A stretch of DNA of 64,000 nucleotides, taken from sequence record MW741821.1. One strand, written 5' to 3'. Positions 3,036 through 6,249 of the stretch are shown piece by piece. This DNA is from Escherichia phage vB_EcoP_DE5. Made by a program: the position numbers and the translations under genes. The notes under the pieces are model-generated. The model saw only the letters and a program-made list of their open reading frames with translations, was not told where the DNA came from and did not search any database. Position 1 is the stretch's first letter; every line of letters begins with the position of its first letter.

Positions 3036-5066
3036 TTAACCTCTATTCAATGAACATTTAGGAGAATTACAATAAACTTGATTCATAGAACCAAGCGTAC
3101 AACTTTCAGCATCGCGCCACGGAATCTGCTTAAAACACTCTGAGCAGTAGCCGAGGGTTGACCACATGGCTTTGGTGAAGTCAGTGCTTCTGTTTCCGTC
3201 GAAGCTGACGACAGTTTTGCGGAGAGTTGTTCGTGATTCAGGAAACACACCTGCTTTCTCAGCAGGTTCCTCCTTTTTTGGCTTAGTTGAGATTGCAAAA
3301 ATACTGTTGCCACGTTTCTCAACATAAGCATCAACAACATCTTCCAGAGTGATACCTGTCTGTTTCGCTGAGGAAGGTAATACAGTCATACGACCAATCA
3401 TATCCTCAGTTACACGTACAGCAATTTCAGGACGACGGGTATTTGTTGTATCTGTTGCTTTAATCCAGACATAACCATCTTTGATCGTAGCATTAGACAC
3501 TTTCTTCTTTACATCTACAGCGCAGACTTTACAGATATCTTCACCACGAAGACGGCTGAGTTCCTCATCGAACTCATTCTCTGTTTTAACTTCACCGCAG
3601 ATTTCACAAACACCAATAGGAGTTTCCTCCTCTTCTTCATCTTTAGGTTTAGTCAAACCTTCCAGACATTCAGGGTGCCAGTAGCACTGATATGCGAAGA
3701 CTGCTTTAGGTGCATCCTTCCAATCAATGTGTTTGTCACAACCACCGCAATCACCATGAGAGTGTGCTTCCCAGAATTTACGAGTGATAGTAACGCCATT
3801 CTTATTGACGAAACTATCATTCATGTCAAAAGGGATATCATCATCGAAGTCAGCAGTAGTAGACTCAGGCTCCTTTTTCTCCAGAGATGGGTCAACAAAA
3901 CGACCTGCTGTGATCACTAAACGAACCATAGCATTAACTTCGGAGATACAGGATACTGTCCCACGGTAAACGATCTTAGGGTCTTTCAGTGCGTCCTGAT
4001 AAGCCTTAATGTCTACGTTATGAACATCACCTTCGATGTACTCTTGAGACTTCTCATCGTAGATATAACCAATCATCTTACCACGAGAAGGAACAGCACC
4101 AGCAGTTGCATAAGGAACGAACTCATGCGGAGTGATTTCAACAGTCATATCACGACGGATATCAATATTTCGATCGCTTGCGATTTTGTTTTGACTTACC
4201 ACTGCGTTTCTTCGACGAACGTCTGCCGCTGTCACACCCGGCTTCGTGTCGTAAGGATTGCTTGTACTGCTTTTTGAGGAACTTTGATAGTTGCTTTGGC
4301 TGTAATTGTTCGAGTAGTAATTGCCCCAACGATTGACTACCGTAAAAACCGGAAGCTCGTGGGCGACCTCTTCAACCAGTGTCATGCTGTTATTAGACAT
4401 GTCAAAGATATACTCTGTACCAACTTTACATTCAAAATGCTCATCAATACGGTTCTTGTGAGACTTCGAACGCTTCAGAATCCACATCAGCATATCTTCT
4501 TCAGAAGCACCAAACCAATCTCTGTTACAACGTGCGAGATGGAAAGGACGCTCTTCGTTACGAATGATATGAAGGCGGTTATCAGAAGCATCATGCCAGA
4601 TTAATGTGAAAGCACCATCCAGCTTTTGAATAGTCTCTGCTGCACCAATAGTGTTAATAGAGTGGCAGATGTTCTCACTGTCTACCTCGAAGTTTTTGCT
4701 GTCAGGTAACAGATCTTGGTCCATCAAGGTTCCGTTATGAACCAGAGTGATGTTACCATGTTGGAAAGGATGGGCGTTCTTGGCGTTAACTGCACCTTTC
4801 GTTGCATGACGACTGTGACCAACAATCCATGAAGGTGCTACAGTGTAAGCTGTTTCACCAGTGGTGTGCTTCTTGTACTCATCTTGTAGGATGAATGCGA
4901 AAGAAGGAAGAGCTTCTTTATAAGTGAAGACTTCCTTGGTGCTTTTACGCTGACCAAAGATACCGGAGGAATGTTGTCCTCGGAATACTCCAGCGTAAAA
5001 GAGTTGGTTGAATACGTCTAAATCAGTGCTTGACAGATTACCGCCAGCTAATACGATGCCACAAAT
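3036..5066 (-). CDS. class II (Ntn-type) glutamine amidotransferase fused to a Cys-rich zinc-ribbon-like C-terminal region (about 676 aa)
   Basis: Own translation upstream of the ORF-track start gives in-frame CGIVLAGG...SRHATKGAVNAKNAHPF...VHNGTL, a GATase-II signature with N-terminal nucleophile Cys. The Cys codon is preceded by ATT, and AGGTGGA sits 7 nt upstream of that ATT. C-terminal CxxC pairs (HGDCGGCD, CEICGE, CKVCA, CSECF, CNSPKC). ORF track starts at internal TTG 4727. Confidence 0.6.
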   Translation of the reverse strand: MCGIVLAGGNLSSTDLDVFNQLFYAGVFRGQHSSGIFGQRKSTKEVFTYKEALPSFAFILQDEYKKHTTGETAYTVAPSWIVGHSRHATKGAVNAKNAHPFQHGNITLVHNGTLMDQDLLPDSKNFEVDSENICHSINTIGAAETIQKLDGAFTLIWHDASDNRLHIIRNEERPFHLARCNRDWFGASEEDMLMWILKRSKSHKNRIDEHFECKVGTEYIFDMSNNSMTLVEEVAHELPVFTVVNRWGNYYSNNYSQSNYQSSSKSSTSNPYDTKPGVTAADVRRRNAVVSQNKIASDRNIDIRRDMTVEITPHEFVPYATAGAVPSRGKMIGYIYDEKSQEYIEGDVHNVDIKAYQDALKDPKIVYRGTVSCISEVNAMVRLVITAGRFVDPSLEKKEPESTTADFDDDIPFDMNDSFVNKNGVTITRKFWEAHSHGDCGGCDKHIDWKDAPKAVFAYQCYWHPECLEGLTKPKDEEEEETPIGVCEICGEVKTENEFDEELSRLRGEDICKVCAVDVKKKVSNATIKDGYVWIKATDTTNTRRPEIAVRVTEDMIGRMTVLPSSAKQTGITLEDVVDAYVEKRGNSIFAISTKPKKEEPAEKAGVFPESRTTLRKTVVSFDGNRSTDFTKAMWSTLGYCSECFKQIPWRDAESCTLGSMNQVYCNSPKCSLNRG

Positions 5067-5145
5067 TTTCTAATCCACCTGAAGGGTAAACCCTTTCATC
5101 TAATTAACCTTTAAATTGTGCCCCTTTATCAGAGGCACCCATTGA

Positions 5146-6249
5146 TTACAGCGCTTGCTCTAACTGATTTTCCAGATGGTCTGGAATGTACCCTGTGATA
5201 TTGCTATCACTGTGACCAGACTCACGTAGTAAGTCAAAAATAGCACGAATACGTTGTTCTGGAGCGTGTCTTACTTGAGATAGGTCTGCTGTACGAAGCA
5301 TAACCAAAATCTCTTGATACAAGTTGTTAGCGTTCCCTCGAACATATCCAAGGAATCCATAGAAGTCTGACATAAGACGTAAGTCAACAAGAACCTCTCC
5401 GTTGGAGTTGGTTCGACGTAAACGAATACGACCAGACTGTTCTACTTCATGAGAACGGCAATACAAAACATCACGGGCCATACAATACCCTGAATGCAAA
5501 TCAGATTCATCCAGATTGTAATCCAGAGGAAGGTAAGGAAGCATTGGGGCAAATCGTACAGTATTTAAATGCTCAATAAACTGATCATTGCTCATATCTG
5601 CGTTATCTAAAGCCAGCTTCTTCAACATCAAGAAGCGGTTAACCAGATTGAGAAGTTGACCACGTTTCCACTTAGGCTCACTGATACGGAACTCAATTGA
5701 ACCGTATTGGGCAAGTGGCAGAAGGTTCAGGGATGTATACTTATCCCATGAACGAACCAGACGGTTGAAGAACTCTTCACCATCGTAGTTAAATGCGTCA
5801 GAGGCATTCATTACCTGTGCTTGTACCACTGCAAACGCAGGGCAGAAATTGCTACGGTAACGATGGTAGCCTGAGCACTTGAACAACATCTTTTCATAGA
5901 AGGTCCAAGCGAGAATGGTTTTCTTGAGGATATTACTATCAGCATCCCTCATATCCATATGAACGTGAGTAGAGCAACGCCAAGTCCCCTCGGCGTGCGA
6001 TTCAGCTACTGCTTCACTCAGGTTGTTGATAGCGTCTAACAACTCCTGTCCGTTGTAAGGTCGTGAACATACCATTTCACAACCATTACGCAGGGAACCA
6101 TCCTCTGTACAATCCCACATATCTGCTTCGATATGATCGGAACCTTCGAGTTCAAGTTCAATACCGACACCGCACTGAAGTGCAATTGAACTATGCGCCT
6201 CAGTTAAACGTCCTTCTCGATATCCAAAAGTTTGCGCTACAGTTGTCAT
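5146..6249 (-). CDS. glutamine-synthetase-like amidoligase (COOH-NH2 ligase family)
   Basis: Ordered motifs GIELELEG, STHVHMD, GSIEFRISE (GxExE / HxH / ExR) as in the amidoligase family; recalled from memory, not searched. Confidence 0.55.
   Translation of the reverse strand: MTTVAQTFGYREGRLTEAHSSIALQCGVGIELELEGSDHIEADMWDCTEDGSLRNGCEMVCSRPYNGQELLDAINNLSEAVAESHAEGTWRCSTHVHMDMRDADSNILKKTILAWTFYEKMLFKCSGYHRYRSNFCPAFAVVQAQVMNASDAFNYDGEEFFNRLVRSWDKYTSLNLLPLAQYGSIEFRISEPKWKRGQLLNLVNRFLMLKKLALDNADMSNDQFIEHLNTVRFAPMLPYLPLDYNLDESDLHSGYCMARDVLYCRSHEVEQSGRIRLRRTNSNGEVLVDLRLMSDFYGFLGYVRGNANNLYQEILVMLRTADLSQVRHAPEQRIRAIFDLLRESGHSDSNITGYIPDHLENQLEQAL

Follow-up and report, generated by a model that had tools for sequence, protein, structure and literature searches.

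A probable AUU start codon in a tightly constrained initiation region of a phage class II amidotransferase gene

The start region of the amidotransferase gene

The stretch analysed here (the window) comprises 64,000 nucleotides of Escherichia phage vB_EcoP_DE5 (record MW741821.1), a Kuravirus of the phiEco32/SU10-like coliphages that is 98-99% identical to phiEco32, SU10 and Bas91. On its minus strand lies a gene for a glutamine amidotransferase (GATase) of class II, i.e., of the N-terminal nucleophile (Ntn) type, whose coding sequence probably begins at an ATT codon. The start region reads ATG (5099-5097) AAA GGG TTT ACC CTT CAG GTG GAT TAG (5072-5070) AAA ATT (5066-5064) TGT (5063-5061) GGC ATC GTA on the minus strand. 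The gene and the elements around its start are the following.

3036-5066, minus strand: class II (Ntn) GATase gene, homolog of phi32_83; 676 codons from ATT to stop.
5061-5063, minus strand: TGT, the codon of the catalytic Cys1, by alignment to residue 1 of GlmS and PurF.
5064-5066, minus strand: ATT (AUU), the probable start codon; no canonical start follows the in-frame TAG, and the codon is invariant in 96 records and is the annotated start in EU330206, NC_010324, KM044272 and PQ850614.
5067-5073, minus strand: A/U-rich spacer of 7 nucleotides (nt), TTAGAAA, which holds the in-frame stop TAG (5070-5072) and is identical in lineages with 28-40% protein identity.
5074-5080, minus strand: Shine-Dalgarno (SD) sequence AGGTGGA (AGGAGGA in most other lineages, AGGCGGA in phage BUCT695).
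5082-5095, minus strand: hairpin of 5 bp, AAGGG (5095-5091)-TTTA-CCCTT (5086-5082), whose 3′ end lies 1 nt before the SD, at position -16 from the A of ATT.
5070-5099, minus strand: upstream open reading frame (uORF) of nine codons, ATG to TAG (MKGFTLQVD), in frame with the GATase gene.
5108-5112, minus strand: AAAGG, which resembles an SD and precedes the ATG of the uORF by 8 nt; the stretch that contains it has its homolog in the promoter-like AAATGTAA region of relatives.
5059-5113, minus strand: invariant island of 55 nt, TAAAGGTTAATTAGATGAAAGGGTTTACCCTTCAGGTGGATTAGAAAATTTGTGG, running from TAAAGG to TGTGG.

The initial annotation of this DNA had described a GATase gene without a canonical start codon, and the anatomy it gave is borne out. 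Between the TAG and the Cys codon there are just AAA and ATT, with no in-frame ATG, GTG or TTG; the strong ribosome binding site stands ahead of ATT at a spacing of exactly 7 nt; and both the nine-codon uORF and the AAGGG-TTTA-CCCTT hairpin are present. A mechanical list of open reading frames (ORFs) contains only 3036-4727, starting from an internal TTG, as had also been noted.

A class II amidotransferase with Cys1 as nucleophile

The cysteine encoded next to ATT had been taken for the Ntn nucleophile, and alignment supports this. A profile of nine homologs (A1) begins M-C-G-I; it aligns with the first residue of PurF (1ecb) and of E. coli GlmS (4amv and 1xff, the latter beginning CGIV), so that the cysteine falls on the catalytic Cys1 of both enzymes. 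In A1, C1 and G2 are invariant, as are R28-G29, H83/R85/T88 (H-x-R-x-A-T), N110-G111 and D128, all aligned to GlmS motifs; the glutamine site of GlmS is formed by Arg26, Arg73/Thr76, Asn98-Gly99 and Asp123. Pfam assigns GATase_6 at 55.1 bits (cutoff 27) and GATase_7 at 27.4 bits (cutoff 25), and the protein matches PHROG 4736 with E=8e-202. By every sequence-level test it belongs to the class II Ntn amidotransferases.

The protein resembles GlmS, PurF and AsnB in placing the Cys1 nucleophile directly after the initiator Met, in conserving the equivalents of the Arg, Asn-Gly and Asp residues, and in matching both GATase_6 and GATase_7. It differs from them in lacking a sugar-isomerase, phosphoribosyltransferase or synthetase domain, in place of which it has a C-terminal region of ~400 amino acids with CxxC pairs; the partner amidoligase, COOH-NH2 ligase and ATP-grasp genes are separate. 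Pfam finds no SIS domain, and matches in the PDB are confined to the N-terminal 220 residues. Because the SIS domain is absent, the GenBank name 'L-glutamine-D-fructose-6-phosphate aminotransferase' is unjustified. The several CxxC...CxxC pairs in the C-terminal half (window 3036-4300, minus strand) are zinc-ribbon-like and occur also at the C-termini of the distant homologs L004, L023, L027 and L029 (the L-numbers, L001-L099, denote the homologous GATase loci compared, from isolates, metagenomes and databases).

Probable initiation at AUU

Comparison of these sequences indicates that translation of the GATase gene very probably begins at AUU 5066-5064, as genuine AUU initiation from a specialised and tightly constrained initiation region. 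AUU, which the initial annotation had proposed, is the sole option left by the in-frame TAG. The homologous phage genomes, with which comparison had been recommended, keep the ATT-TGT pair in all relatives. In a nine-sequence alignment of three genera (Kuravirus, Suseptimavirus and Nieuwekanaalvirus), variation over the first 58 codons after ATT is distributed 14/9/45 over codon positions 1/2/3. This pattern, found right after ATT, indicates that the 113 codons upstream of the internal TTG are translated.

The same data bear on an N-terminus at the internal TTG/ATG (4727/4724), which had been named as the outcome that would contradict an ATT start. Here the first 113 codons would be untranslated, the Cys1 region would be a relic, and the protein would be made from 4727/4724 or from the internal ATGs of some GenBank records. 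Gene callers do use internal codons, and so do the records of SU7, KBNP1711, EP335 and BUCT695, which start at internal ATGs and thereby lose the catalytic Cys1. Third-position-dominated variation that sets in right after ATT is at odds with such a start; moreover, all the catalytic GATase residues lie in this segment and are invariant across the nine distant homologs, and the truncated protein would be without its nucleophile. An internal start is therefore highly improbable. An error of base calling or assembly that conceals a true ATG, for which nothing speaks except the rarity of ATT starts, can be regarded as refuted: the 55 nt match to 99% or better in all 96 independent E. coli/Shigella phage records compared, and the sequence recurs in several independent metagenome assemblies.

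The ATT start of this gene is already public and is not new. GenBank begins the gene at this codon in phi32_83 (EU330206, 2008, and RefSeq NC_010324), SU10_085 and Bas91_0078. The searchable literature, which did not take in the primary phiEco32 papers PMC2587145 and PMC3275717, yielded no discussion of it; a study of the sRNA svsR in Kuravirus infection has no bearing on it.

An invariant leader

Across the three genera the 55 nt at 5113-5059 contain no variable column. This is the longest invariant run in the nine-sequence alignment, well beyond what chance would give, the next longest being 11 nt, and about 50% of the columns vary in the flanks, which comprise the 3′ end of the amidoligase gene, a terminator-like hairpin and the GATase gene. 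The two upstream features are the following.

5146-6249, minus strand: amidoligase gene, homolog of phi32_84, upstream of the GATase gene (from the ORF list and annotation).
5118-5138, minus strand: predicted hairpin of 8 bp after the amidoligase stop codon, terminator-like and without a T-run.

The order on the minus strand is amidoligase stop codon, 8-bp hairpin (5138-5118), AATTTAAAGGTTAATTAG and the ATG (5099-5097) of the uORF. The 5118-5138 hairpin has compensatory stem changes between genera, with GTGCCTCT/AGGGGCAC in the window and GGGCGCT/AGGGCGC in SU7, and is labelled 'terminator' in the WFI101126 record.

The island reaches beyond the subfamily. Aeromonas phage BUCT695 (L004) belongs to another family, Grimontviridae, and has a GATase 53% identical to that of the window; its surrounding DNA cannot be aligned, yet its island is 91% identical. 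From the uORF ATG on, only two changes separate it from the window: an A replaces T in the hairpin loop, and GCG replaces GTG in the SD. Further differences lie at the 5′ end of the island. The protein of L078 is 60% identical to that of the window, yet its leader has clearly more differences than that of BUCT695. The leader and protein trees are thus incongruent, BUCT695 being closer in the leader and L078 in the protein, which points to horizontal exchange of the module. The segment GATGAAAGG is found also in ECO319P1, a relative of the ATG type, in which the ATG of the segment is out of frame and AAAGGA is the ordinary SD of an ATG start. The 5′ part of the Kuravirus leader is thus ancestral intergenic sequence that predates the module, and the 3′ hairpin arm together with the SD, TAG, spacer and ATT look grafted onto it.

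Other functions for the leader were considered. The island occurs once in the window, with no second copy elsewhere of the kind expected of a general operator. A search of 4800-5400 against Rfam 15 with E up to 10 returned only noise (best 14-17 bits against cutoffs of 44-70, E ~1). Long-range pairing and an alternative SD-sequestering helix predicted by RNAfold were rejected, since the SD-sequestering helix is disrupted by the substitutions of BUCT695 and the partner codons differ from genus to genus. Neither a sigma-70 nor a gp36-type promoter was found in the leader. The gp36 consensus of phiEco32 is tAATGTAtA, 6-8 bp upstream of the transcription start (PMC8948821); near 5100-5130 there is no match to it at up to one mismatch, and the homologous position reads AAAGGTTAA in the window versus AAATGTAA in relatives. 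The latter sequence resembles the consensus and is conserved just upstream of the SD, ~10-35 nt from the GATase start, in the Grimontviridae-type relatives L013, L014, L039/L040, L083 and L004; in the window it is degenerate.

Recurrence of AUU and AUC starts in the family

An exact-pattern scan of metagenomes with the 23 nt CAGGNGGATTAGAAAATTTGTGG gave six non-Kuravirus contigs (L023, L026, L027/L033, L028, L029) in which these 23 nt are identical and both flanks are unrelated. A homologous GATase follows in each, at 28-40% identity to the window protein and to one another; the core GGATTAGAAAATT-TGTGG is thus identical in metagenomic phages whose GATases have diverged to this extent. Further homologs were surveyed in IMG/VR, phage isolates, genome contigs and a protein database with contig look-ups; a search of IMG/VR for close relatives of the L023, L027 and L029 lineages gave none. 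The module can be written as GGATTAGNAAATTTGYGG, or as SD-N7-AT[TC]-TGYGG. Its variants retain the 7-nt spacing between SD and ATT/ATC, with start regions as follows.

L078: GGATTAGTAAATT-TGC
L095/L098: AAGGAGGATTAG[G/A]AAATT-TGT
L047/L054/L090: GGAGGATAGT.A.ATT
L050: GGAGGGTAGCATC-ATC
L046/L096: AAGGAACTATT-ATC
L072/L091: AAGGAGA..TAT.TC-ATC
L097: AGGAGGTGTACT-ATC

ATT or ATC stands before Cys1, with no in-frame canonical start, at L004, L023, L026-L029, L047, L050, L072, L078, L090, L091 and L095-L098. L046 and L054 each have one upstream in-frame TTG or ATG that lacks a convincing SD. Nearly all ATT/ATC loci have an in-frame stop upstream. In a rough neighbour-joining tree they fall into at least eight clades, each beside sisters with an SD and ATG (the window versus L038/L014, BUCT695 versus ECO319P1, L023 versus L092).

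AUU/AUC is nevertheless the minority in the family, since 113 of the best 120 database homologs have an xCG start, as do 102 of 114 in a second search. Ten irregular N-termini were looked up; six were ATT/ATC starts, one was L089 (ATT plus an in-frame GTG), one was a missed ordinary ATG and two were ambiguous. The ambiguous loci, L094 (an 11-nt duplication in the start region) and L099 (an assembly gap), were set aside. At L094 (~975-1010) the 11 nt are duplicated in tandem, ATGTGCGGAAT followed by ATCTGCGGAAT, the original ATG is out of frame and an ATC precedes the real Cys codon. This locus could be a snapshot of a non-canonical start arising, a pseudogene or an assembly artefact. Among the 55 loci scored for a hairpin (see below), 16 have ATT/ATC and 3 have GTG/TTG. 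In E. coli, GUG starts 14% and UUG 3% of genes, and infC and pcnB are the only confirmed AUU genes (bioRxiv 10.1101/063800). The GATase family, in which AUU/AUC is commoner than GUG/UUG, thus reverses the genome-wide pattern.

A hairpin that abuts the SD sequence

A hairpin was scored when its stem had 4 bp or more, 3 or more of them G-C, its loop measured 3-5 nt and its 3′ end fell at -17 to -14 relative to the start codon. Such a hairpin lies next to the SD in 12/16 ATT/ATC loci versus 0/39 ATG/GTG/TTG loci; when the upstream sequences are shuffled, it appears in 0.6% of them. With the lineage as the unit of counting, it is present in 9/13 for ATT/ATC versus 0/42 for canonical starts (Fisher p=1e-7). 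The stems themselves differ: AAGGG/CCCTT, AAGGGA/TCCCTT (L078, extended), GCATGT/ACATGC, CCTGA/TCAGG, GCCCT/AGGGC, GACTC/GAGTC, GCTAC/GTAGC, GGTC/GACC and AACCC/GGGTT. In the clade of L046/L047/L050/L054 the stem sequence is wholly replaced and its position is kept. Different complementary stems at one position amount to covariation in the ordinary sense, and the hairpin first pointed out in this leader is thus a real, selected feature.

Several points weigh against AUU initiation from such a region. AUU is intrinsically a very weak start codon, and AUU/AUC output in reporters is ~1-3% of that of AUG (bioRxiv 10.1101/063800). Four ATT/ATC loci (L023, L072, L089, L091) have no convincing hairpin. 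The SD of BUCT695 is weakened to AGGCGGA while the spacer is unchanged, which suggests a constraint on the spacer beyond compensation for the SD. L089, a close relative (65% identity), has lost the TAG codon of the spacer; the region reads TAG GTG ACT AAA ATT TGT, with an in-frame GTG that has its own SD 4 codons before the Cys. Short propeptides might therefore be tolerated in the family, or ATT might still be in use at this locus. Identical cores at 28-40% protein identity, beside sisters with SD and ATG, fit horizontal movement at least as well as frozen ancestry. Finally, the searchable literature, the two phiEco32 papers excepted, yielded no N-terminus, ribosome-profiling or toeprint data for the gene.

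The upstream reading frame and coupled translation

The uORF had suggested translational coupling, and the geometry of a coupled pair is present: 3 nt separate the TAG from ATT, and the codons CAG GTG GAT of the uORF overlap the SD. In having an upstream stop 3 nt before the start and an SD inside the upstream ORF, the locus resembles coupled genes in phage and bacterial operons. Termination-reinitiation could thus be the main route to the GATase, with negligible de novo initiation by 30S subunits. Ribosomes that enter the uORF at ATG 5099 from the SD AAAGG would melt the hairpin, stop at TAG 5072-5070, be held by the SD and restart on the AUU 3 nt further on; in relatives an upstream homing-endonuclease ORF would take the role of the uORF. 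The uORF, the SD-like AAAGG and the TAG all lie within the invariant island, and the uORF is kept in BUCT695 (as MKGLTLQAD; it is invariant in Gordonclarkvirinae). Three different upstream ORFs also end at exactly this TAG, namely HNH_3 plus helix-turn-helix (HTH) in L028/L033, a phrog_374 HNH ORF in L023, and an HTH ORF in L078, where TAA comes next.

The wider family speaks against this route. L029, L090, L047/L050/L054, L098 and L096/L097 keep the hairpin-SD-AUU/AUC layout with neither an upstream ORF that ends there nor a uORF start, so a conserved upstream ORF does not accompany the conserved start (the uORF is absent from the first four of these groups). L078 has CTG in place of the uORF ATG, and there the region forms the end of a longer HTH ORF. 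The GATGAAAGG ATG occurs out of frame in ECO319P1 as well and is therefore older than the module, and both BUCT695 changes within the uORF are non-synonymous. Since several lineages have no upstream ORF at all, reinitiation cannot be essential for the family, and as the main route in the window it is possible but doubtful. The uORF is thus not established as a coding or coupling element. The locus also differs from coupled operon pairs in that members of the family can do without the upstream ORF and ribosomes would restart on AUU/AUC, not AUG/GUG.

The in-frame position of the uORF also allows another scheme, in which translation starts at the uORF ATG, the TAG is read through and a 12-residue extension is removed autocatalytically. 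B. subtilis PurF is an Ntn amidotransferase made with a propeptide and so solves the same problem, that of obtaining an N-terminal Cys; in-frame canonical starts occur 4 codons (L089) and 8 codons (L054) ahead of the Cys, with no intervening stop. In the window, unlike B. subtilis PurF, the in-frame stop two codons upstream excludes a propeptide, and the start codon is set directly before Cys. Every lineage with the module retains the TAG, L078 having a doubled stop, TAG TAA; the uORF is absent from most lineages, UAG is not read efficiently by E. coli hosts, and the window encodes no suppressor tRNA, its sole tRNA being Arg(TCT). Readthrough is accordingly scarcely credible. A programmed frameshift or hop was rejected on inspection: the uORF and the GATase gene share one frame, so their fusion would require readthrough, and there is no slippery heptamer that would lead into frame 0.

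Homing endonucleases at the junction

Free-standing HNH endonuclease genes have a hot spot directly upstream of the module. The junction ORFs are HNH_3 plus HTH in L028 and L033, HNH_3 plus AP2 in L026 and L047, a phrog_374 HNH ORF in L023 and an HTH ORF in L078; those of L023, L028, L033 and L078 run into the module and terminate at its TAG. Between the amidoligase and GATase genes of BUCT695 (L004, 3805-4005) lies an unannotated, decayed HNH_3+HTH gene, consisting of an N-terminal GDCWLWTGCINSDGYP fragment and a frameshifted HTH. L023 and L026 share the GATase and the module and carry different endonucleases, with homology breaking off precisely at the 5′ end of CAGGAGG. An endonuclease or its relic is found directly upstream in 6/15 ATT/ATC lineages versus 1/42 canonical loci (L067; Fisher p=8e-4), a figure subject to ascertainment and phylogenetic caveats, as six lineages were found by the motif search itself.

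These observations raise the possibility that the module is a horizontally moving piece tied to free-standing homing endonuclease genes (HEGs) that home into the amidoligase-GATase junction. ATT and the fixed core would then be a co-converted flank, a cleavage-immune allele of an ATG-TGTGG target, or a device that ties GATase translation to the endonuclease ORF, and the Kuravirus leader would be a remnant left after loss of the endonuclease. The excess of endonucleases at ATT/ATC starts, the variety of types (HNH_3 with AP2, HNH_3 with HTH, and phrog_374 HNH), the decayed gene of BUCT695 and the L023/L026 exchange all fit this scheme. So do the interleaving of ATT clades with ATG sisters and the incongruence of leader and protein (53% in protein and 91% in leader for BUCT695; 60% in protein with more leader differences for L078). 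Against it, most ATT/ATC loci, the window included, now have no endonuclease; an endonuclease of the same family lies upstream of an ordinary ATG start in L067; and the module stays with the GATase gene through endonuclease swaps and so is not part of one cassette with them. Any cleavage site would be hypothetical, and the motif search biases the sample. We consider the scheme rather unlikely as the explanation of the start. The uORF had also been considered as a relic of an endonuclease C-terminus, an idea that was dropped since GATGAAAGG is common to the endonuclease-free, ATG-type ECO319P1; the endonuclease ORFs thus read into a pre-existing leader and did not create it.

The arrangement recalls the free-standing HEGs of T4-like phages (seg/mob, 'intronless homing'), in which respect it has HNH genes between two conserved genes, several types at one junction, one decayed copy (BUCT695) and mosaic flanks. 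It differs in that homing and cleavage at a particular site are here hypothetical. We know of no description of a link between the presence of an endonuclease and a non-canonical start of the neighbouring gene.

Two further features of the neighbourhood may be mentioned. The GATase gene lies within a conserved cluster (window 1399-9850, minus strand) with two amidoligase/COOH-NH2 ligase genes, several small ORFs and an ATP-grasp (RimK-like) gene; at L047, L091 and L098 the gene upstream of the GATase gene is instead of the class I GATase/peptidase C26-like type. The sole tRNA gene in the window, tRNA-Arg(TCT), is at 14164-14239 on the minus strand.

A model for AUU initiation

In the AUU reading preferred here, the initiator tRNA would place formylmethionine at AUU 5066-5064, and deformylase and methionine aminopeptidase would then expose Cys1 as the catalytic N-terminal nucleophile. 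In GlmS, PurF and AsnB, Cys1 is known to be exposed when the Met is removed, and from these we infer the same step for the phage enzyme. What makes AUU usable would be a module composed of a short G+C-rich hairpin that ends 0-1 nt before a strong SD, a 7-nt A/U-rich spacer, AUU/AUC and UGY-GG. A near-cognate start leaves no slack, so all other elements of the initiation region would be strongly constrained; the 55-nt island and the identical GGATTAGAAAATT-TGTGG core in distant phages would follow from this. The hairpin may insulate the SD from the upstream context, whether intergenic DNA, uORF or endonuclease ORF, and it may also stack with the SD/anti-SD helix. Any upstream frame ends at the in-frame TAG, 3 nt before AUU, and terminating ribosomes may reinitiate there, which would not be required.

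Such a start may serve to keep the enzyme at a low level, probably gated by IF3, as in the case of E. coli infC. Weak or regulated initiation of the GATase, as proposed at the outset, is a reasonable inference. infC, which encodes IF3, is autoregulated via its AUU start, and IF3 discriminates against AUU/AUC. The phage gene shares with infC and pcnB a conserved AUU start without a canonical alternative, and low, IF3-discriminated initiation would be expected of it as well. Unlike them it encodes an enzyme of a phage and not a translation factor, and no autoregulatory loop is evident; moreover, many clades of a single enzyme family use AUU/AUC, in a hairpin-SD-7 nt layout that is fixed and with a core that very distant phages share unchanged.

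More speculatively, hairpin-SD-UUAGAAA-AUU might be a portable, sequence-frozen 'weak-start' cassette specific to phage Ntn amidotransferases, which moved between unrelated phages, probably with junction HEGs, and serves a regulatory purpose. This could be gating by the ratio of IF3 to ribosomes, with translation rising as host expression shuts off, or dependence on termination of the endonuclease ORF, an 'addiction' that protects the selfish gene. We regard this proposal as tentative and improbable as it stands. If the addiction version were true, the Kuravirus uORF would be a minimal replacement after loss of the endonuclease.

Implications

Apparently new are the invariant island of 55 nt, the repeated use of AUU/AUC within a single enzyme family, the covariation-supported architecture of a hairpin that abuts the SD, the identical core in very distant phages and the association with HEGs. 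Confirmed AUU/AUC starts are extremely rare in bacteria and phages, with two in E. coli, and one enzyme family that uses them repeatedly is a natural system in which to study near-cognate initiation and why selection would prefer such starts. Gene callers miss the start; as a result, many GenBank and metagenome entries are mis-started or have lost the catalytic Cys (~3-10% of database homologs). Should the link to HEGs be causal, it would be a novel means by which selfish genes influence the translation signals of the genes next to them.

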